NCBI GenBank assembly: GCA_963836755.1
Contig: CAWIKF010000002.1
Span: forward strand, 1,920,001-1,984,000
Direction of reading: 5' to 3'
From: an uncultured Verrucomicrobiae bacterium
GTDB taxonomy: Bacteria > Verrucomicrobiota > Verrucomicrobiia > Chthoniobacterales > Chthoniobacteraceae
DNA: 64,000 bases
Part shown: positions 5,424 to 15,129 of the stretch, in pieces
Position numbering within the stretch: the stretch's first letter is position 1
Layout of the letters: every line of letters begins with the position of its first letter
The notes under the pieces: generated by a model
What the model was told of the DNA's origin: nothing
The model's database searches: none
What the model saw: only the letters and a program-made list of their open reading frames with translations
Position numbers and translations under genes: made by a program

Positions 5424-5563
5424 CTGGAACTTTGTGCTTGCGCGCGTTCCGAAATTGATGTGGATGGAAAGCAATCCCACCCCGTCTGTGCGCATGTGCC
5501 TTTCGCTCAACTCTCGTCGTTGCGTCCCAGTGCCGCGAGCAGGCCTCGCGAACTTTTAAAGCT

Positions 5564-6808
5564 ATGAAAATCAAAAAATACACCATCGGAATGGGCGACC
5601 GCTTCGCTCATCAAGGCAACGCGCAGCTCACGGCAGTGCTCCAGGCGCGGGACGCCGGCGTCGAAATCTACCCGGTCTGGAACAAGTCCAACCGCGAACA
5701 CACGATCGTCAAAAGCAAGCCGGCCGACCTGCGCGCGGAAGCTGATGCGGCTGTGGCTGCGCTCGGATGGAAGGAAGCTTACTATGTGGACGCCGACCAT
5801 ATCGGTTTGAAGACCGTGGATAGCTTCATCGACGGCAGCGACTTTTACACGCTAGATGTGGCGGACTTCACGGGAAAAGCCGCCGATGAGGCGACGATCG
5901 AGAAGTTCGTCAAATCGATGGATGACTACCTCGGCTCGCTGGAAATCGCCGGCATCGACGACCCGATCGAACTGACGGAAGTTTCCGTGCGTGCGGCGGC
6001 TGGAAAGTTCCTTCTTGCGACGCAGGAAGCAGGGCGCATTTACCGTCACATCGAAGCCAAAAAGGGCGCCGGGAATTTCGTGACCGAAGTCTCAGTCGAC
6101 GAAACCGATACTCCGCAAACTCCAGTGGAGTTGTTTTTGATCCTGGCCATGATCGCAGCCGAAGGAGTCCCGGCACAAACAGTAGCTCCAAAGTTCACCG
6201 GCCGATTCAACAAAGGTGTCGATTATGTGGGTAACCTTGCGCAGTTTGAAAAGGAGTTCGACGAAGACCTTTGCGTCATCGCCTTTGCCATCCGAGAGTT
6301 CGGCTTGCCGGATAGCTTGAAACTAAGTGTCCATTCCGGCAGCGATAAGTTTTCACTCTATTCAATCATCAACCGCCTCGTCAAAAAGCACGACGCAGGT
6401 CTTCACGTGAAGACTGCTGGAACCACGTGGCTTGAGGAAGTCATAGGTCTCGCTGAAGCGGGCGGCGAGGGATTGGTGATCGCAAAGGAAGTCTATGCCG
6501 GAGCTTATGCGCGGTTCGATGAACTGACCGGGCCCTATGCAACAGTGATCGACATTGACAAGGCGAAGCTGCCGAAGCCGGAGGCGGTAGAGCAGTGGGA
6601 TTCGGTGAAATACGTGAATACATTGCGCCATGTGCAAAGCAACCCGGACTATAACCAACACTTCCGGCAGTTGATCCACGTGGGATTCAAAGTAGCCGCC
6701 GAAATGAAGACCCGCTACACCGACGCCCTTGCTGCCAATGAAGCGATCATCGCTAGAAACGTGACCGGCAACCTTTACGACCGTCACATCAAGCCCATCT
6801 TCGGATAG
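5564..6808 (+). CDS. uxaE: D-tagaturonate/D-fructuronate epimerase (UxaE family)
   Basis: GMGDRF, DADH, EVSVDET, KGVDY, LSVHSGSDKFS, HVKTAGTTWLE motifs. Confidence 0.92.
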   Translation: MKIKKYTIGMGDRFAHQGNAQLTAVLQARDAGVEIYPVWNKSNREHTIVKSKPADLRAEADAAVAALGWKEAYYVDADHIGLKTVDSFIDGSDFYTLDVADFTGKAADEATIEKFVKSMDDYLGSLEIAGIDDPIELTEVSVRAAAGKFLLATQEAGRIYRHIEAKKGAGNFVTEVSVDETDTPQTPVELFLILAMIAAEGVPAQTVAPKFTGRFNKGVDYVGNLAQFEKEFDEDLCVIAFAIREFGLPDSLKLSVHSGSDKFSLYSIINRLVKKHDAGLHVKTAGTTWLEEVIGLAEAGGEGLVIAKEVYAGAYARFDELTGPYATVIDIDKAKLPKPEAVEQWDSVKYVNTLRHVQSNPDYNQHFRQLIHVGFKVAAEMKTRYTDALAANEAIIARNVTGNLYDRHIKPIFG

Positions 6809-6820
6809 AACTAAGTCAGG

Positions 6821-7765
6821 ATGAAATATCGCAAACTCGGCAACACTGGCCTTGAAGTATCGGTGCTAGGCTTCGGCGGTTCCTCGCTCGGCTCTGTCTT
6901 CAAGGCCATCAATGAATCCGAAGGCATTAAGGCAGTCCACGTTGCCATTGATCATGGGATCAACATTATCGACACAGCTCCCTACTACGGTGCGACCACC
7001 GCGGAAGCTGTTTTAGGTAAGGCGTTGAAGGAGATTCCGCGCGAGAAGTATTACCTCGCTACCAAAGTCGCGCGCTATGGCGATGAGATCAAAGACTTTG
7101 ACTTCTCGGCGGCGCGAGTGATGCAAAGTGTCGAGCAAAGTCTGCAAAGGTTGAACGTCGACTATCTCGACTTCATACAGGTGCACGACATGGAGTTCGG
7201 CGATATCGACGTGATAGTCAATGAAACCATTCCGGCTTTGCGCAAGATGCAAAGGGAAGGCAAGGCTCGTTTCGTTGGAATTACTTGCCTGCCAGTCTGG
7301 CTGTTTGAAAAAGTAATGGATCAGGTGGAGGTGGATCAAATCCAATCCTACTGTCACTACTGCCTCAACGATACGGCCCTCGCGGGAATGCTACCTTACT
7401 TTCAGCAGAAAGGAGTTGGCATCTTTAATTCCGCGCCGCTGGCGATGCGTCTTCTAAGCGATGAAGGCCCGCCCAAGTGGCATCCCGCGCCTGCCGAGGT
7501 TCGCGAGAAGTGTGCCGAAGCTGCAAGATACTGCCGCGAGCGCGGTGCGGACATTGGAAAGCTAGCTTTGCAGTTTTCGGTAGCTAATCCCGCCATCCAT
7601 ACCAACATTGTCGGCACTGCAAATCCTAATCGCATACTCCAAAACATCCGCGAGATGGAAGAACCACTGGACGAGGAGTTGTTGCACGGAGTCTTGGAAC
7701 TCCTAAGGCCGATTCATAACCGAACCTGGGCTTCGGGACGCCCGGAAAACAATCACCCATGCTGA
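6821..7765 (+). CDS. Aldo/keto reductase, L-galactose dehydrogenase subfamily
   Basis: LGSVF, DTAPYYG, HDMEF, ETIPAL, SYCHY, GPPKWHPA resemble plant and Bacteroides L-galactose dehydrogenases. Confidence 0.88.
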   Translation: MKYRKLGNTGLEVSVLGFGGSSLGSVFKAINESEGIKAVHVAIDHGINIIDTAPYYGATTAEAVLGKALKEIPREKYYLATKVARYGDEIKDFDFSAARVMQSVEQSLQRLNVDYLDFIQVHDMEFGDIDVIVNETIPALRKMQREGKARFVGITCLPVWLFEKVMDQVEVDQIQSYCHYCLNDTALAGMLPYFQQKGVGIFNSAPLAMRLLSDEGPPKWHPAPAEVREKCAEAARYCRERGADIGKLALQFSVANPAIHTNIVGTANPNRILQNIREMEEPLDEELLHGVLELLRPIHNRTWASGRPENNHPC

Positions 7766-8151
7766 AGAGCGGTATCTTAAACCCGCAGATCAACTCACTG
7801 CTAAGTCGAGTGCGTCATACGAATGCGCTGGTCATTTCCGATCTTGGTTTTCCATTCTGGCCGATGGTTGAAACAGTGGACATCTCCTTGGTGAAAGGCG
7901 TGCCGACTATTCCGCAGCTACTTGCGGCGATCCTGCCGAACTTTAACGCCGGAGAAGCTTTCATGGCCGAAGAATTCCTGGCGAACAATGACCAAGCTGC
8001 TTGCGCCGTCTTTACAGAAGCGTTGGGTAATGTGCCTCTAACCTTCGAGCCTCATGAGGCAAAGTTTAAAAAACGAGTGCCTTCAGCCATAGGTCTTATT
8101 CGAACTGGTGATGCGACGCCTTATGGGAACATCATTCTAGTTTCGGCCTAG
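7759..8151 (+). CDS. RbsD/FucU-family sugar pyranase/mutarotase
   Basis: GILN..RVRHTN.LVISD.GFP and IRTGDATPYGNIILVS. Confidence 0.9.
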   Translation: MLKSGILNPQINSLLSRVRHTNALVISDLGFPFWPMVETVDISLVKGVPTIPQLLAAILPNFNAGEAFMAEEFLANNDQAACAVFTEALGNVPLTFEPHEAKFKKRVPSAIGLIRTGDATPYGNIILVSA

Positions 8152-8154
8152 GTC

Positions 8155-8808
8155 ATGAAGCTCCTTGATTTATCGCAGCCTATTTACCACGGAGGTCCAA
8201 ACTGCCCCGCGCATCCGCCCGTAAAGAGCGAGATCATCGCCGACCATCCCGTTGACGGCTGGCGATTGGAACTGCTAACTCTTGCGAGCCACACTGGCAG
8301 TCATGTAGATGCTCCATTGCATAAGGTAGCCGGCGGGGCGGACATTGACGGAATTGCACTTGACTCCTTTGTAGGTCCTGCTTGCGTCGTGGACATACGA
8401 GGTATTGGCGCGAACGAGCCAATTACCCCGCAACTATTGGATCAACATCTTCAACTGCGCTTGGATGACACCATCGTCCTTCTCGCTACCGGCTGGGGAA
8501 CGAAGCGCGCAAAGACGGATGAATGGCATCATCACTCGCCATACCTTTCGCCGGCCGCGGCGCAATGGCTGGCTGAGAAAAATGTGCGCGGAGTTGGAAT
8601 CGACCACTACTCCATCGGCGGCAGCCGTGATCCCGATAACACTCGGACACACGAGATTCTGCTGGGCGCGAACGTGTGGGTGGTGGAGGATTTGAATTTC
8701 CCGGCAGAGGTATGGAGCTTGCGGCAGCCTTTTACATTCTGGGCCTTGCCGGTTAACTTAAAGAACCATTCGGGCGCTTTCTGCCGACCGGTGGCGCTTG
8801 TTGAATAA
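8155..8808 (+). CDS. Cyclase-family (kynurenine formamidase-like) metal hydrolase
   Basis: HTGSHVDAP motif, GIDHYS, H..LL....VVE.L. Confidence 0.92.
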   Translation: MKLLDLSQPIYHGGPNCPAHPPVKSEIIADHPVDGWRLELLTLASHTGSHVDAPLHKVAGGADIDGIALDSFVGPACVVDIRGIGANEPITPQLLDQHLQLRLDDTIVLLATGWGTKRAKTDEWHHHSPYLSPAAAQWLAEKNVRGVGIDHYSIGGSRDPDNTRTHEILLGANVWVVEDLNFPAEVWSLRQPFTFWALPVNLKNHSGAFCRPVALVE

Positions 8809-8832
8809 CGTGAACATGAAACCCTTGTAAAA

Positions 8833-9645
8833 ATGAGCGCTAACCTATTTGATCTTTCAGGTGAAGTGGCAGTTGTCATCGGCGCAACGGGTGCGCTAGG
8901 TGGAGCGCTGGCCGCAGGTTTAGGAAAGGCGGGAGCATCAGTCGCCGTGCTCGGACGCAATGTAGAACGCGGTGAAGCTTGTGCGAATGGCATCAACGGA
9001 AATGGCGGAAGCGCGAAATTTTTCCAAACGGATGCTATCGATGCTGCGAGCCTCGCGACGGCACATCGAGCAATCGAGACGGCTTTCGGCGCGACGACGG
9101 TGCTCGTGAATGCTGCCGGCGGCAACGACCCGAAAGTGACGGTCACGGCCGAGCGACCTTTTGAAAAAATCACGGCTGAAGATTGGCGCGCGGGCTTCGA
9201 CCTCAACCTTGTCGGCGGTTCTCTCCTGCCGTGCCAGGAGTTTGGACCGGCGATGACGCAGCGGGGAAAAGGGAGCATCATCAACATCGCCAGCGTGTCG
9301 GCGCACTTGCCGCTAAGCCGCGTGGTTGCTTATTCCGCGGCCAAGGCCGCCGTGATCAGCCTCACGCAATTCCTCGCGCGCGAGTGGGCGCCGCGCGGTG
9401 TGCGCGTCAATTCCATCACGCCCGGTTTTTTCCCCGCCGAGCAAAATCGCGCGCTGCTTTTCAACCCCGACGGAACGCCGACGGCGCGTGCCGCATCGAT
9501 TCTCGGCCATACGCCTATGGCACGTTTTGGCACTTCGCAAGAGTTGGTGGGCGCCGCGATTTTTCTCGCCAGTCAACACGCGAGCAGCTTTGTCACCGGC
9601 ATCGATCTGCGCGTCGACGGCGGATTTTTGTCGCAAACGATCTAA
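8833..9645 (+). CDS. uxuB: SDR-type D-mannonate oxidoreductase / fructuronate reductase
   Basis: NAAGGNDP, PLSRVVAYSAAKAA, PGFFPAEQNRALL, ILGHTPMARFG typical of SDR-type UxuB. Confidence 0.82.
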   Translation: MSANLFDLSGEVAVVIGATGALGGALAAGLGKAGASVAVLGRNVERGEACANGINGNGGSAKFFQTDAIDAASLATAHRAIETAFGATTVLVNAAGGNDPKVTVTAERPFEKITAEDWRAGFDLNLVGGSLLPCQEFGPAMTQRGKGSIINIASVSAHLPLSRVVAYSAAKAAVISLTQFLAREWAPRGVRVNSITPGFFPAEQNRALLFNPDGTPTARAASILGHTPMARFGTSQELVGAAIFLASQHASSFVTGIDLRVDGGFLSQTI

Positions 9646-9652
9646 GTCTAAA

Positions 9653-10951
9653 ATGCCCCTCGAAGTCCTTTCCCGCATCGGAGCAAATGGCGGCGCTGTC
9701 ACTGCCAATGAAATCCGTGACCTTGTCGTTGAGGCTTGTCCCGCGGCGGATTATCGCAATCGGAAGGTTCTTGTCATTGTTCCCGATGCCACCCGAACCG
9801 CGCCGGTGGACCTCTTTTTTAAAGCGCTGCACACGCAGATCGGCGCGACGTGCCAGCACTTTGACGTCATGATCGCGCTCGGCACGCATCCGCCAATGAG
9901 CGATGCGGCAATCTGCGAAAGGCTTGGCCTCACTCCGGAAGAAAGGCACGAGCGTTATCCTAATGTTCAGTTTCTGAATCACGAGTGGGACAATCCCGGC
10001 GCGCTCACCTCGCTGGGAGTGATTCCAGCGGCGGAAATCAGTGCGCTCTCGGGCGGACTTTTTGCCATGGATGTGGAAGTGCGCGTCAATCGCCGCCTGT
10101 TCGACTACGATCAAATCATCATTGTCGGGCCGGTCTTTCCGCACGAGGTTGTCGGTTTTTCCGGCGGTAACAAATACCTTTTTCCGGGCGTGAGCGGACC
10201 CGAAGTGCTCAACTTTTTTCACTGGCTCGGCGCCGTGGTCACGAACCCGATGATCATTGGAAATAAGTGGACGCCGGTTCGCAAAGTAGTCGATCGAGCC
10301 GCCTCGATGGTGAAGGTGCCGAAGCTCTGTTTTTGTCTCGTAGTGAAAGGTGCGGACTTGGCCGGCGCATTCGTCGGCACCCCGGAAGCCGCATGGACAG
10401 AGGCTTCGGAGCTTTCGCGGCAATTGCACATTGTTTACAAGGAGAAGCCTTTTCACACGATTCTGTCCTGCGCGCCGAAGATGTATGACGAACTTTGGAC
10501 GGGTGGAAAGTGCATGTATAAGCTTGAGCCCGTCCTCGCGGACGGCGGCGAGCTGATCATTTATGCGCCGCATATTTCGGAAGTCTCCATCACGCACGGA
10601 CGCGTGATTGAAGAACTCGGCTATCACTGCCGGGACTATTTTTTGAAGCAGTGGGACAAATTTAAAAGCTATCCGTGGGGCACGCTGGCCCATTCAACTC
10701 ATGTCCGTGGCATCGGCGAGTTTGACGAAAAGACCGGCGTCGAAAAATGCCGCGCACGTGTCACGCTTGCCACACGAATCCCGCGAGAGATTTGCGAGAA
10801 AATCAACATGGGCTACCGCGATCCTGACTCGATCGACGTCGAGAGTTTCGCCAATCGCGAAGAAGAGGGCATCTTGCTCGTGCGCAAGGCTGGCGAGATG
10901 CTTTATCAGTTGCGTGAACCGCCGGAGTGGGCGCGTGGAGGATCAGCATGA
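9653..10951 (+). CDS. LarA-family (nickel-pincer nucleotide) 2-hydroxyacid racemase/epimerase, GntE-like
   Basis: PDATRT, ALGTH, NHEW, PHEVVGFSGGNKYLFPG; start MPLEV after the SDR stop. Confidence 0.88.
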   Translation: MPLEVLSRIGANGGAVTANEIRDLVVEACPAADYRNRKVLVIVPDATRTAPVDLFFKALHTQIGATCQHFDVMIALGTHPPMSDAAICERLGLTPEERHERYPNVQFLNHEWDNPGALTSLGVIPAAEISALSGGLFAMDVEVRVNRRLFDYDQIIIVGPVFPHEVVGFSGGNKYLFPGVSGPEVLNFFHWLGAVVTNPMIIGNKWTPVRKVVDRAASMVKVPKLCFCLVVKGADLAGAFVGTPEAAWTEASELSRQLHIVYKEKPFHTILSCAPKMYDELWTGGKCMYKLEPVLADGGELIIYAPHISEVSITHGRVIEELGYHCRDYFLKQWDKFKSYPWGTLAHSTHVRGIGEFDEKTGVEKCRARVTLATRIPREICEKINMGYRDPDSIDVESFANREEEGILLVRKAGEMLYQLREPPEWARGGSA

Positions 10952-11466
10952 GTGAGTTTGTGGTCATGGGTGTCGCAGGTTGTGGTAAGACAAGTGTAGC
11001 TCGCTGTTTGGCGGAAAAATCGAACGGTATCTACTTTGACGCCGATGAATTTCATCCAGCTGCCAACAAGGAAAAAATGGCGGCGGGAATCCCACTGACT
11101 GATGATGACCGCTGGCCGTGGTTGGATCTTCTGAATGAAAAATTAAAGGCACTCTCAAGAAAAGAGATGCCTGTTTTTCTGGCATGCTCCGCGTTGCGCC
11201 AGAGCTATCGCGACCGGCTCGGTGTCGGCATTCCCAGGCTGCGCTTCATTTACTTGAGAGGCTCGACGGAGCTGATTCGTCAGCGGCTCGAATCGCGAAG
11301 AGATCACTTCATGCCTCCGTCTTTGCTCGACAGCCAGTTTGCGACATTGGAAGAGCCGAAGGATGCGATAGTCGCACCAATCGAGGAACCGGTGCCGGTG
11401 GTTGTCGAAAAAATCCTCTCGCAGATCAAAGCACTCTCCTGGCAATCAACCCTAAAAAATTCATGA
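10948..11466 (+). CDS. gntK: Gluconokinase (GntK/IdnK type)
   Basis: MGVAGCGKT, DADEFHP, PLTDDDRWPWL, ACSALR, HFMP..LLDSQFATLE. Confidence 0.95.
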   Translation: MSEFVVMGVAGCGKTSVARCLAEKSNGIYFDADEFHPAANKEKMAAGIPLTDDDRWPWLDLLNEKLKALSRKEMPVFLACSALRQSYRDRLGVGIPRLRFIYLRGSTELIRQRLESRRDHFMPPSLLDSQFATLEEPKDAIVAPIEEPVPVVVEKILSQIKALSWQSTLKNS

Positions 11467-12485
11467 AAACCATCCGACTCGAAGAACCTGGAACCTTGGC
11501 CTTTCTCGAAACCGACGCGCCCTCTCCGCAGTTGGCCGCAGAAGATGCACTCGTCCGCGTGCATCGGATAGGAGTCTGCGGCACAGACATTCATGCCTTC
11601 CGAGGTAAGCAGCCATTTTTTTCCTATCCTCGAATCCTAGGTCATGAGTTGGCTGTTGAAGTAGTTCAAGTAGGCAGCGAAGTAACCAATCTATCTCCCG
11701 GTGATCGCTGTTCCGTCGAACCCTATATCAACTGCGAAAAGTGCATCGCGTGCCGCCGCGGCAAGCCCAATTGCTGCACAGACATCAAAGTGCTCGGCGT
11801 GCACACGGATGGCGGCATGCGCGAGCAGTTTGTCATGCCAGCTCGCAAGCTGCATAGTTCGAGCAAGCTAAGTCTCGACCAACTTGCGCTAGTTGAAACA
11901 CTCGGCATCGGCGCTCATGCCGTCGAGCGGGCGCAGGTGGAAAGGGATGAGTTCGCGCTGGTCATTGGCGCAGGTCCCATAGGTCTCGCCGCAATGCAAT
12001 TTGCGCTCGAGAAAGGCGCGAAGGTCATCGTGCTGGACATCAATGACGCACGGTTGGAGTTTTGCCGCCAGCAGCTACTCGTGCCTCACACAATCAATGG
12101 CGCCAAGGAAATTCCACTGGAGGCATTGAAAAAAATCACCAACGGAGATCTTCCAACCGTCGTCTTCGATGCAACGGGCAGTCCAAAATCCATGATGGCT
12201 TCTTTCGAATATCCGGCTCATGGCGGCCGGCTCGTTTTCATTGGGCTGTTCCAAGGAGAGGTGACATTTAATGACCCGAACTTTCATCGGCGTGAGTTGA
12301 CGTTGCTCGCCAGTCGAAATGCGCAGCCCGGAGACTTCACGCGCATCATCCAGCTCATCGAAGCCGGGCGCATCAATACCACGCCATGGATTACTCATCG
12401 GGCTAAGTTTGACGAAGTGGTAGACGTATTTGCGAGTTGGACGAACCCGCAAACGGGTGTGATTAAGGCCATGATCGAGATCTAG
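11463..12485 (+). CDS. Zn-dependent dehydrogenase, L-galactonate 5-dehydrogenase (LgoD/YjjN)-like
   Basis: CGTDIHA..G.QPFFSYPRILGHE, Cys cluster, GVHTDGG, FHRRELTLLASRNA. Confidence 0.87.
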   Translation: MKTIRLEEPGTLAFLETDAPSPQLAAEDALVRVHRIGVCGTDIHAFRGKQPFFSYPRILGHELAVEVVQVGSEVTNLSPGDRCSVEPYINCEKCIACRRGKPNCCTDIKVLGVHTDGGMREQFVMPARKLHSSSKLSLDQLALVETLGIGAHAVERAQVERDEFALVIGAGPIGLAAMQFALEKGAKVIVLDINDARLEFCRQQLLVPHTINGAKEIPLEALKKITNGDLPTVVFDATGSPKSMMASFEYPAHGGRLVFIGLFQGEVTFNDPNFHRRELTLLASRNAQPGDFTRIIQLIEAGRINTTPWITHRAKFDEVVDVFASWTNPQTGVIKAMIEI

Positions 12486-12492
12486 GTCTACA

Positions 12493-15129
12493 GTGAAGCA
12501 ACCCTCTTGTTTCTTGCTTTTCCTTAGCTATTGCTTGCTTGCGGCACTGACTCATTCAGCAATGGGCGAGACGTCACCTCGCGAGCGGATTCTTTTGACT
12601 TCGAACTGGCTTTTCAAGAAGGACGACCCGGCCGGCGCGGGTGAAAGTTTTGCATACGATAAGCTAAAGCCATGGGTGCTTCCCGCCGCGAATGCGTTCT
12701 CCTCGAAACAGGTTCGGCGGCCTGCGGGCGAGGCGCCGGGCGAAAATGTAGATTATACCCAAGGCTCCTACGACGATTCTTCATGGCGAAAGGTGAACCT
12801 GCCGCACGACTGGGCGATAGAAGGTCCTTTCAAACAAGAATATCCGGGCAGCACCGGAAAGCTTGCTTATTGGGGCGTTGGCTGGTATCGCAAACACTTT
12901 ACCTCGCCGAGTGCTGACAAAGGCAGGCAAGTCTTTTTGGATATCGACGGCGCAATGTCCTACTCGGCAGTCTGGTTAAACGGCAAGTTTGTTGGCGGCT
13001 GGCCCTATGGCTACTCATCCTACCGTCTGGATCTTACGCCTTATCTTAAAATAGGAGCTGACAACGTCATCTCCATCCGCCTCGACAACCCTAAGAATTC
13101 CTCGCGGTGGTATCCCGGCGCCGGCATCTATCGCAACGTCTGGCTCGTCAAAACTGCTCCAGTTCATGTCGCTCATTGGGGAGTGATAATCAAAACGGTC
13201 AATGCGAGCAAAGATGAAGCGACTATTCAGATATCAGCCAACATAGACCAACCTCCGGACACGAGCATTGCGGTCGCGGAAACCATTTATGAGTTGAAGC
13301 CAGACGGCACGAGGGGAGGGGAACCAGTTGCCAAAGGTATGCCTTTGGCGAGCGACGTGCTTGTGAAAACAGGAGTGCAGTTGACTGAGTTAAAAGTTAA
13401 AAAGCCGAAGGTCTGGAATTTGGATTCTCCCAACCTCTACTGTGTCGTGACGGATGTTCTTAAAGACGGAAAGGTGGTTGATCAATGTGTGACCGCCTTC
13501 GGCATACGCACTATCGAATTCACAGCCGACAAAGGGTTTTCATTGAACGGGAAGAAGGTAAAGCTAAATGGCACCTGCAATCATTCTGATCTCGGAGCGC
13601 TTGGAATAGCAGTCAATGTCCGCGGGCTCCAGCGCCAGATTGAGATCCTCAAGGAGATGGGCTGCAATGCGATTCGCACCAGTCACAACATGCCGGCACC
13701 TGAGTTGTTAGACCTTTGTGATCGGATGGGGATGCTCGTCATGGATGAATCTTTCGACTGCTGGCAACGCGCCAAAACTCCGGGCGACTACCATCTTCTT
13801 TTTAACGATTGGCATGAGCCAGATATCCGCGCGGAAGTGCGTCGCGACCGCAACCATCCTTCCATAGTTCTCTGGAGCATTGGCAATGAAATTCCGGAGC
13901 AGGGAAGTCCAAAAGGGAGTTCAATTGCGGCGGAGCTAACTCATATCATTCACGAAGAGGATTCCACGAGATACTCTACCGTCGCTTGCAGTTCCACCAC
14001 CGCCGGCTATACGGATTACGCAAAAGCCGTCGATGTCTTTGGCTATAACTATAAACCTGATGAGTATACGAAATTTCATGAGACCAACCCGCTCATACCG
14101 CTCTTTGGCAGCGAAACTTCCTCCACTGTCAGCACGCGCGGCGAATACTTTTTTCCGTTGAATACGGAACTTGAGGATTTTCAGGTAACTTCCTATGACA
14201 CCTACAAGCCGCACTGGGCGACTCTTCCGGATACTGAGTTCGCCGGGCAGGAAAAGAACCCTTTCGTGGCAGGTGAGTTTGTGTGGACTGGTTTTGACTA
14301 CATGGGCGAGCCAACTCCCTATAACAAGGATAGCAGCATACTTCTCAACTTTTCCACTCCAAAAGAAAAAGCCAAGGCCGAAGCCGACCTGAAGGCTTCT
14401 CAGAAGATACCTGTTCCTTCGCGGAGTTCCTACTTTGGAATCGTCGATTTGTGTGGGTTTAAAAAAGACCGTTTCTACCTCTACCAATCCGTTTGGCGCC
14501 CGGATTATCCAATGGCCCACATTGTTCCGCATTGGAACTGGCCTGAGCGCGTCGGTCAGCAGACGCCGGTCTTTGTCTATACTTCTGGCGACGAGGCTGA
14601 ACTTTTTCTCAACGGCGCTTCGCTCGGTAAAAAGAAGAAGGATCCATTTCAATACAGGATCGGCTGGGACGAGGTGACTTATCAGCCAGGGGAATTGAAA
14701 GTGGTTGCTTACAAAAATGGCAAAGAGTGGGCGACCGATCGCGTGAAGACTACAGGACAGCCGGCAAAGATTCTGCTGGCGCCCGACCGAAAATCTATCA
14801 TGGGCGATGGCCGCGACCTTTGCTTTGTGACGGTAAGCATCGTGGATCAAAATGGACTTTCGGTTCCGCGCTCTCATCCGAAGCTGCAATTTGCTATCAC
14901 CGGGCCCGGAGAGATCGTTGCGACCGACAACGGCGATCCGACCGATCAAACCTCTTTCCCGTCCACCGAACGCGCCGCTTTCAACGGTATGGCTCTTGTC
15001 ATTATTCGAGCCAAACCCGGTGCCGCGGAAAAGATCACCCTCCATGCAATCGGGGAAGGACTGCCAGCGAGCGATACAGTGATTCTGCCGACGAGCTCGG
15101 TAGTCTCGCCTTTAACTCCTGAAGGTTGA
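12493..15129 (+). CDS. Secreted GH2 glycoside hydrolase (beta-galactosidase-like)
   Basis: Signal peptide, LPHDWAI, SRWYPGAGIYR, IRTSHN, WSIGNE acid/base, GSET nucleophile, WTGFDY.GEP. Confidence 0.95.
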   Translation: MKQPSCFLLFLSYCLLAALTHSAMGETSPRERILLTSNWLFKKDDPAGAGESFAYDKLKPWVLPAANAFSSKQVRRPAGEAPGENVDYTQGSYDDSSWRKVNLPHDWAIEGPFKQEYPGSTGKLAYWGVGWYRKHFTSPSADKGRQVFLDIDGAMSYSAVWLNGKFVGGWPYGYSSYRLDLTPYLKIGADNVISIRLDNPKNSSRWYPGAGIYRNVWLVKTAPVHVAHWGVIIKTVNASKDEATIQISANIDQPPDTSIAVAETIYELKPDGTRGGEPVAKGMPLASDVLVKTGVQLTELKVKKPKVWNLDSPNLYCVVTDVLKDGKVVDQCVTAFGIRTIEFTADKGFSLNGKKVKLNGTCNHSDLGALGIAVNVRGLQRQIEILKEMGCNAIRTSHNMPAPELLDLCDRMGMLVMDESFDCWQRAKTPGDYHLLFNDWHEPDIRAEVRRDRNHPSIVLWSIGNEIPEQGSPKGSSIAAELTHIIHEEDSTRYSTVACSSTTAGYTDYAKAVDVFGYNYKPDEYTKFHETNPLIPLFGSETSSTVSTRGEYFFPLNTELEDFQVTSYDTYKPHWATLPDTEFAGQEKNPFVAGEFVWTGFDYMGEPTPYNKDSSILLNFSTPKEKAKAEADLKASQKIPVPSRSSYFGIVDLCGFKKDRFYLYQSVWRPDYPMAHIVPHWNWPERVGQQTPVFVYTSGDEAELFLNGASLGKKKKDPFQYRIGWDEVTYQPGELKVVAYKNGKEWATDRVKTTGQPAKILLAPDRKSIMGDGRDLCFVTVSIVDQNGLSVPRSHPKLQFAITGPGEIVATDNGDPTDQTSFPSTERAAFNGMALVIIRAKPGAAEKITLHAIGEGLPASDTVILPTSSVVSPLTPEG

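Follow-up and report, generated by a model that had tools for sequence, protein, structure and literature searches.

A nine-gene Verrucomicrobial cluster as a candidate dehydratase-free route from L-galactose to 6-phosphogluconate

We analyzed a 64,000-nucleotide stretch of DNA from an uncultured Verrucomicrobiae bacterium (assembly GCA_963836755.1, contig CAWIKF010000002.1, positions 1,920,001 to 1,984,000; hereafter the window) and found that a run of nine genes at positions 5564..15129 probably specifies enzymes that convert L-galactose to 6-phospho-D-gluconate without a dehydratase. We assign this reading a probability of about 0.72, with each activity predicted from gene content, active-site residues, the inventory of the window's own genome (G000; 96.1% complete), and co-conservation in relatives. 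The two halves of the route, from L-galactose to D-tagaturonate and from D-tagaturonate to 6-phosphogluconate, are each known separately, and their union appears undescribed. A preliminary description of this DNA had proposed a gene for every step, and each step now has sequence or context support for its predicted activity; none of the refuting outcomes named there turned up, as far as computation can reach them, and the family labels given there to all nine genes were matched by Pfam or NCBIfam models.

In the proposed route, an RbsD-like protein would supply the correct anomer of L-galactose, an aldo-keto reductase (AKR) would oxidize this sugar with NADP+ to the lactone, and a cyclase-fold hydrolase, as its context suggests, would open the lactone to L-galactonate. 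A Zn-dehydrogenase would then oxidize C5 to give D-tagaturonate, UxaE would invert C3 to give D-fructuronate, a short-chain dehydrogenase/reductase (SDR) would reduce C5 to give D-mannonate, and a nickel-pincer LarA homologue would invert C2 to give D-gluconate. Phosphorylation of C6 by GntK would yield 6-phosphogluconate, which Gnd, encoded elsewhere in the genome, would feed to the pentose phosphate pathway. Provided that the Zn-dehydrogenase and SDR draw on one cofactor pool, the net reaction would be L-galactose + NADP+ + ATP → 6-phosphogluconate + NADPH + ADP, equal in yield to D-glucose metabolized via a kinase and Zwf. Drawn as Fischer projections, the C2–C5 configuration is L,R,R,L in L-galactonate and R,L,R,R in D-gluconate. 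Three of the four stereocentres are inverted along this route, C5 by oxidation and then reduction, C3 by UxaE, and C2 by the LarA homologue (GntE type), so that the two epimerizations counted in the preliminary description stand as steps but understate the net change, which includes C5.

The AKR (6821..7765, + strand; PF00248) is most likely of the L-galactose 1-dehydrogenase type, its substrate preference being predicted. All five of its top solved relatives are L-galactose dehydrogenases (354–312 bits), compared to 116 bits for the next entry, and the closest is the sequence of 9W6Y/9W7A; 9W7A is the L-galactose dehydrogenase of Luteolibacter LG18 (PMC13661200). By alignment to the solved relative, the window enzyme retains 8/8 published site residues, consisting of the tetrad D51/Y56/K82/H122, the binding residues S21, D123, and W220 (=W223), and M209 (=M212). 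Met212 and Trp223 mark the L-galactose-preferring state, and Met disfavors L-glucose (PMC13661200). The Zn-dehydrogenase (11463..12485, + strand), a predicted LgoD-type L-galactonate 5-dehydrogenase, shares 39% identity with E. coli LgoD, compared to 33% and 24% with RspB and IdnD, respectively. In a 60-sequence tree, from which hits with <85% coverage or with stops were excluded and in which LguD and BVU0222 were not among the sequences compared, it groups with LgoD and apart from RspB and IdnD (FastTree support 0.889). Both enzymes thus fall where the preliminary description had placed them. In LG18, enzymes of these AKR and Zn-dehydrogenase types turn L-galactose into tagaturonate, which exits via UxaB/UxaA-type enzymes (PMC12632266).

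We collected AKR-anchored neighborhoods from 110 loci (29 genome loci, 80 metagenomic loci, and the window), which form 88 groups at 90% identity. The RbsD-like gene (7759..8151, + strand) adjoins the AKR gene in 35/110 loci; its product scores 93 bits against PF05025 and 88 bits against the RbsD equivalog model, below the cut-off of 93, and we infer that it is an L-galactose mutarotase. Across the 88 groups, the AKR gene is accompanied by genes for a Zn-dehydrogenase (53 groups), RbsD (26, plus 8 with a second RbsD type), an amidohydrolase lactonase (22), UxaE (18), the cyclase-fold protein (12), GH29 (10), and UxaA (6). The uxaE gene (18 groups) and uxaA/uxaB (6) occupy the same position (L143 compared to L161) and never co-occur (both in 0). 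Because UxaA plus UxaB and UxaE both start from tagaturonate, this slot swap points to tagaturonate as an intermediate. A second survey covered 401 genomes of the order, 27 of them with a close AKR, and added 21 loci from 20 genomes new to the survey; uxaE was present in 10 of these loci, uxaA in 4, and both in 0. A second Zn-dehydrogenase clade (~35% identical to the window enzyme) partners the same AKR in L102, L141, L150, L195, and others, nearly always together with an amidohydrolase lactonase.

All eight metabolic genes occur together in two genomes of another family (G602 and G589, family f13) and in the metagenomic loci L143, L203, and L205, although the AKR of L143 coincides exactly with that of G602 in the tree, so that L143 is not independent. 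The f13-type order (an AraC gene, GH29, and then AKR-rbsD-cyclase-uxaE-Zn-SDR-larA-gntK) differs from that of the window, and recurrence of the eight genes in a different order argues that their grouping is not due to chance. The UxaE, AKR, and Zn-dehydrogenase of f13 fall in clades other than those of the window, suggesting separate assembly of the clusters. A third version, in the frameshift-rich G652 assembly (family f6), reads uxaE-AKR-Zn-amidohydrolase-SDR-larA, with no cyclase, RbsD, or GntK. Two other families of the order thus also have the joined cluster, and UxuA had no match in G602, G589, G652, G510, or G040. Within the stretches fetched, many of them short, the halves are joined in 4 of the 27 close-AKR genomes; the neighborhood conservation that the preliminary description named as a check is real for the eight genes and confined to a minority of genomes. 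The GH29 enzyme linked to the joined clusters scores highest against the exo-alpha-L-galactosidase BpGH29 (239 bits, compared to ≤164 bits for other entries, all named fucosidase); 7SNK and 7LJJ are identified in bioRxiv 2023.03.30.534863. Two GH29 homologues are encoded elsewhere in G000. Near AKR clusters, a 542 aa protein without a Pfam or NCBIfam match recurs (L208:7143-8768, L105, L203, L205, L214). The G589 assembly holds both exit versions, uxaA+uxaB and uxaE-SDR-larA-gntK (G589:C148, L261; G589:C2, L265), as either a real duplication or a binning mixture.

The cyclase/KynB-fold metallohydrolase (8155..8808, + strand; PF04199) is likely to be the L-galactonolactonase, and would be a probable new kind of lactonase and a new enzyme assignment. 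Residues H46, H50, D52, H56, H166, and E178, the metal ligands of the PF04199 family (compared with C-PTE; PMC12135135), are invariant in 17/17 aligned sequences. The predicted model (pLDDT 88) matches KynB, isatin hydrolase, and C-PTE in fold searches, which confirms the fold and not the substrate; the protein thus does not have the Amidohydro_2 fold of BVU0220/L-fuconolactonase-type lactonases, although it may act as they do. The lactonase reading comes from context. A search of 301 genomes of the phylum and 151 of the family found the cyclase-fold protein in 8 other genomes, with its gene between those of the AKR and Zn-dehydrogenase in 5 (rbsD adjoining in 2), ~5 kb from them in 1, and unlinked in 2 (one at a contig end). 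The cyclase and amidohydrolase lactonase genes occupy the same slot (L100 compared to L096) and never occur together, with 12 and 22 of the 88 groups, respectively, both in 0, and with 5 and 12 of the 21 further loci, both in 0. This exclusion has a p value of 0.04 among the 53 AKR groups with full flanks and of 7e-4 among the 34 of these with a Zn-dehydrogenase (cyclase 8, amidohydrolase 18, both 0, neither 8), where kin are not independent.

It is possible, although doubtful, that the pathway is right and the cyclase-fold protein has a housekeeping or repair role, with the lactone opening spontaneously or through a lactonase encoded elsewhere; this alternative overlaps our preferred explanation and concerns one step only. 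The solved relatives of the protein are amidohydrolases or a phosphotriesterase rather than sugar lactonases, its gene is unlinked to the AKR in 2/8 genomes, an amidohydrolase lactonase homologue is present at G000:C1:723712, and the LG18 cluster functions with no lactonase gene listed (PMC12632266). Linkage to the AKR in six of the eight genomes and the mutual exclusion with the amidohydrolase argue for the lactonase assignment instead. The amidohydrolase homologue of G000 lies in L228:7720-10796 (G000:C1:722720-725796) with an SDR and a RhaT-type transporter, which is probably a separate deoxy-sugar module.

The lower half of the proposed L-galactose route begins with UxaE (5564..6808, + strand), a predicted tagaturonate/fructuronate C3-epimerase that scores 186 bits against PF16257 and has UxaE structures 6IL9/6ILA as its best solved relatives (E 1e-29). 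In the alignment, the catalytic pair of the Cohnella enzyme, Glu126 and Asp159 (PMC11194214), corresponds to E45 and D78, consistent with the earlier placement. The protein is a short form, 414 aa compared to ~490 aa in assayed enzymes; the match begins at profile position 78 (residue 92 of 6IL9), and this subfamily, which omits the first ~77 profile positions, is common in relatives. The SDR (8833..9645, + strand) scores 313 bits against the D-mannonate oxidoreductase model PRK08277 (cut-off 281), indicating a predicted fructuronate reductase of UxuB function, and a structure search returned no named mannonate reductase among its matches. The gluconokinase, of the GntK/IdnK type (10948..11466, + strand), scores 179 bits against TIGR01313 (cut-off 114) and is 40% identical to E. 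coli IdnK.

The LarA homologue (9653..10951, + strand; Lar_N PF09861), a predicted 2-epimerase dependent on the nickel-pincer nucleotide (NPN), scores 234 bits against 4NAR, the GntE2 of T. maritima, compared to ≤29 bits for lactate/malate racemases, as expected from its earlier placement. D45, R48, H79, H164, K174, H190, K286, and the E165-V166 loop are invariant in 91/91 full-length homologues; catalytic and cofactor residues were taken from PMC7583248, and the EV/S loop and α11 Trp that also define the type there are present. By eye against Dataset S2, the signature is that of Desguin group 19, although the residue before the catalytic lysine is Gly, which it shares with group 20. Group 18 (NF052594) was rejected, as the protein scores 180 bits against a cut-off of 500 and has W-T-G-K rather than W-L-N-K. 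Its closest relatives are mostly titled Verrucomicrobiota, the best ones Chthoniobacterales or Spartobacteria. Membership in group 19 is the weakest link of the lower half. A group 20 member has a KM for mannonate of 17 mM (PMC7583248), and further GntEs appear in PMC11770544. Because the LarA homologue needs NPN, its function is supported by larC, larE, and larB, all above cut-off at three scattered sites (G000:C2:267901, C2:88842, and C3:75236, respectively); tblastn detected no LarA homologue in G000 other than the window gene.

The inventory of G000 fits an exit through these enzymes. UxuA and UxaA-family models had no match in this 96.1%-complete genome, where positive controls matched; a UxaB query gave no match >60 bits; and Edd was not found, the sole IlvD/Edd-family gene being IlvD. 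The genome contains uxaC and gnd outside the cluster, completing the Thermotoga GntE route set with the cluster's uxaE, SDR, gntE, and kinase. Given uxaC and gnd and the lack of UxuA, UxaA, and Edd matches, the lower four genes are probably also the exit of this bacterium for galacturonate and glucuronate. The preliminary description had noted no UxuA, UxaA, or KdgK in the cluster; for UxuA and UxaA the lack of a match extends to the rest of the assembled genome, whereas a KdgK homologue lies elsewhere in G000, together with homologues of Eda, KduI, and KduD. This set fits lyase-derived uronates and would also allow a 2-keto-3-deoxygluconate (KDG) route if a dehydratase was missed. One kdgK + eda pair follows an SDR, a 460 aa protein without a Pfam or NCBIfam match, and a cupin (L094:6352-11869; G000:C2:986351-991868), and the same SDR/460 aa/cupin trio follows gntK in L143, L203, L205, L263, and L265.

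Related genomes show how far this content extends. In a survey of 61 genomes, among which related genomes are not independent, GntE was found in 42, UxaE in 39, AKR in 29, UxuA in 9, a UxaA/GarD-family gene in 15, and LarC in 49. The 42 GntE genomes include 36 with UxaE, 39 with LarC, and 36 with no UxuA match, although exclusion of UxuA by GntE across genomes was not supported (p 1.0). Neighborhoods anchored on LarA were counted in the best 80 of 592 loci; 43 of these 80 contain the SDR (≥40% identity), and the conserved core around the LarA homologue is SDR-gntE. The full cluster is not co-conserved around the closest LarA relatives, and the union is visible only with the AKR as anchor. Directly after larA, an FGGY-family kinase takes the place of GntK in L018:7644-9086, L025, L043, L061, and L256. 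In Opitutales-labelled L052, L066, L068, L078, L081, and L091, larA is followed by eda, mostly with kdgK too, near kduI/kduD, and with no uxuB-type SDR or gluconokinase.

Several of our observations weigh against the L-galactose-to-6-phosphogluconate route. The exclusion between uxaE and uxaA/B is not significant on its own (p 0.31 in the 53 full-flank groups), and the short UxaE is only distantly similar to assayed enzymes (107 bits). The tested group 19 enzyme, GntE1, epimerizes mannonate with a KM of 120 mM; the authors of that work raise the possibility that its native substrate is a different one (PMC7583248). Among the best 80 LarA loci, an AKR is present in 0, uxaE in 1, and gntK in 3, and larA is followed by an FGGY kinase in 5 and by eda in 7. 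UxuA matched in 6 of the 42 GntE genomes, including both genomes of the same genus. G022 (96% complete) has uxaE-AKR-lactonase-Zn-dehydrogenase (G022:C1:3917091-3921000, L096) and no GntE, UxuA, or UxaA match, and may therefore have another exit from fructuronate or mannonate. The cluster contains neither a transporter nor a regulator gene. Finally, G000 encodes, besides KdgK and Eda, an uncharacterized enolase-family enzyme at G000:C2:170745, adjoining a second LgoD-like gene.

Some of these observations underlie an improbable alternative that keeps the upper half: an unrecognized dehydratase would convert mannonate or a preceding acid to KDG, and the substrate of the LarA homologue would be a different sugar acid, for example an aldarate or a mannonate isomer. 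The weak affinity of GntE1, eda after larA, the enzyme at G000:C2:170745 with KdgK and Eda, and retention of the uxaE-containing upper half in G022 all favor it. The candidate dehydratase itself is a poor one, scoring 138 bits compared to a ManD cut-off of 550, with 3TJ4 as its best match. Of five enolase-family matches in G000, three exceeded the cut-off; two were scanned and neither reached the ManD cut-off, and the third resembles a dipeptide epimerase by eye, so that no hidden ManD or Edd was found above cut-off. Moreover, a mannonate reductase gene accompanies larA in about half of the best 80 LarA loci and a gluconokinase or FGGY kinase gene follows it in 8, and most GntE genomes (36/42) have no UxuA match. 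The second LgoD-like dehydrogenase (43% identical to LgoD; L092:7271-9393, G000:C2:169270-171392) overlaps the enolase-family gene and lies beside a GH106-like rhamnosidase.

A further alternative, which we consider highly improbable, retains the lower half and changes the entry compound to another L-hexose or its acid (L-gulose or L-gulonate, oxidized directly to fructuronate, or L-glucose), with UxaE serving galacturonate only. LgoD has activity on L-gulonate, and UxaC in G000 gives UxaE a role without L-galactose. Characterized relatives are also loose in specificity, as LguA and LguD accept L-glucose and L-gluconate (PMC12632266). M209 and W220 of the AKR, by contrast, mark the L-galactose-preferring state; uxaE accompanies the AKR in 18/88 groups, and the gene pair that takes its slot in others, uxaA+uxaB, acts on tagaturonate and not fructuronate; and the linked GH29 is α-L-galactosidase-like. 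L-glucose could not reach tagaturonate in G000, where no IolO/LguG-like C4-epimerase was found, and L-glucose entry for the window was rejected on that ground. L-fucose entry would yield a 6-deoxy acid that GntK could not phosphorylate, and was rejected because of this end product and the GH29 match.

Sister clusters serve as a control for the L-galactose assignment. In 17 of the 110 AKRs, which form a distinct clade at 44–48% identity, Ala occupies the Met212 site. All 17 Ala-type genomes, which are related and not independent, carry an IolO/LguG-like TIM-barrel protein, compared to a close copy in 0/12 other AKR genomes. The best matches of this protein are TM0416 and the 5-keto-L-gluconate epimerase model (222 bits against a cut-off of 300), and its gene adjoins uxaE in 14/18 genomes. 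By comparison, Met at this site and no C4-epimerase in the window indicate a substrate that already has the C4 configuration of tagaturonate. The sister clusters (L107, L110, L113, L120, L123; G004:C22:21623-25052; G026:C10:52028-55963) combine uxaE, the IolO/LguG-like epimerase, an RbsD-like protein, the Ala-type AKR, and mostly a Zn-dehydrogenase and lactonase. Their content suggests L-glucose entry with C4 epimerization, although inositol might instead be the source of the keto acid. UxaE and GntE without a UxuA or UxaA match occur in 5/17 Ala-type genomes, and 11/17 do have a UxaA/GarD-family gene. As a tentative extension, which we regard as unlikely to hold in full, a modular Verrucomicrobial system may feed L-hexoses into the pentose phosphate pathway by stereo-inversion, with the first cyclase-family sugar lactonase and with a sister version that converts L-glucose to D-gluconate by inverting all four stereocentres.

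There is a very small chance that the same product arises with the last steps reversed, by phosphorylation of mannonate and then epimerization of 6-phosphomannonate, as demonstrated in Lactobacillus suebicus extracts (PMC6978723) and as variation between GntK and FGGY kinases beside larA might allow, but both tested GntEs act on free mannonate (PMC7583248) and the window kinase is an ordinary GntK/IdnK above cut-off, whose E. coli counterpart GntK is reported not to use mannonate (PMC6978723).

All nine open reading frames (ORFs) of the cluster are intact on the + strand, with one terminal stop apiece and spacing of −7 to +24 nt (12, −7, 3, 24, 7, −4, −4, and 7 nt in gene order), in agreement with the co-oriented, closely spaced genes of the preliminary description. 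We infer co-transcription from this spacing; promoter and terminator scans gave counts at the level of shuffled sequence (6 compared to 5.5 and 16 compared to 14.7 matches). One DNA read run covers 30/30 bins, with short contigs and none across the cluster, and was not used as evidence. The flanking genes, for a 3-methyladenine glycosylase upstream and an ABC substrate-binding protein downstream, are unrelated. The upstream interval 5424-5563 has no AraC regulator gene, unlike that of many relatives, and the cluster has no transporter gene; the AraC regulator of relatives had no match >60 bits in G000. The ninth gene (12493..15129, + strand) encodes an accessory GalB-type GH2 β-galactosidase (1133 bits against NF041463, cut-off 900) with the GH2 enzymes 5T98 and 9BEY as best solved relatives. 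A GH2 match (same strand, ≥30% identity, ≤7 kb from the AKR) occurs in 1/110 loci, the window, and GH2 was therefore rejected as a core member. It is an add-on outside the conserved set. L-galactose occurs in rhamnogalacturonan II (PMC6353982) and in porphyran, on which GH29 and GH2 β-galactosidase act in turn (bioRxiv 2023.03.30.534863); such a succession is a possible reason for the GH2 gene in the window.

If correct, the proposed route would be a second bacterial fate of L-galactose, in which all six carbons are kept as 6-phosphogluconate with a glucose-like redox yield and no dehydratases. Group 19 nickel-pincer epimerases and short-form UxaE would gain a physiological role, a subgroup of the cyclase family would acquire a lactonase function open to testing, and the eight enzymes would be a ready-made one-pot cascade for turning an L-sugar into a D-sugar acid. 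The lack of a UxuA match in 36 of 42 GntE genomes suggests that uronate use is nickel-dependent in many Chthoniobacterales-like bacteria, and the sister clusters give direct access to the question of how L-glucose is metabolized in nature.

The preliminary description knew of no pathway with this combination, and the union of both halves was not found in the full text of the literature searched, although the supplements of Rodionova 2012 and Hobbs 2014 could list such a neighborhood; the lower four steps, by contrast, correspond to a published Thermotoga route. The upper half is shared with the lgu system of Luteolibacter LG18 (PMC12632266), from the same phylum as the window's labelled relatives, and with the L-galactose pathway of Phocaeicola (Bacteroides) vulgatus (Hobbs 2014, as recounted in PMC12632266 and PMC13661200). 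Each has an AKR L-galactose dehydrogenase, lactone hydrolysis, and a Zn-dependent L-galactonate 5-dehydrogenase that leads to D-tagaturonate. Unlike in these systems, the lactonase slot here holds the cyclase-fold protein, which shares fold and metal ligands with the kynurenine formamidase, isatin hydrolase, and C-PTE of PF04199 (PMC12135135), a family for which the literature searched, as far as its text was available, reports no sugar-lactone activity. LG18 continues via tagaturonate reductase, altronate dehydratase, KDG kinase, and aldolase (PMC12632266), whereas the window has UxaE, SDR, GntE, and GntK. The E. coli L-galactonate pathway (lgoD, uxaB, uxaA) has LgoD-type C5 oxidation to tagaturonate in common with the window, but begins at the acid and dehydrates via UxaB/UxaA. 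The L. suebicus isomerase-phosphoketolase route shares UxaE, UxuB, the 6-phosphogluconate product, and freedom from dehydratases; it places the kinase before the epimerase and, as described in PMC6978723, has no L-galactose entry and no identified genes. Closest in its lower half is the pectin locus of T. maritima, with the run gnd-uxaR-uxaE-uxaD-gntE-gntK (PMC3750489), whose coupling to 6-phosphogluconate was proposed in 2012 by Rodionova, as recounted in PMC6978723. This route also passes from tagaturonate through fructuronate, mannonate, and gluconate to 6-phosphogluconate with a nickel-pincer 2-epimerase (GntE2 activity, PMC7583248), but it is fed by pectin and galacturonate and uses a long UxaE and a group 20 GntE, with a COG1070-type sugar kinase in the context of that group and UxuA also present.

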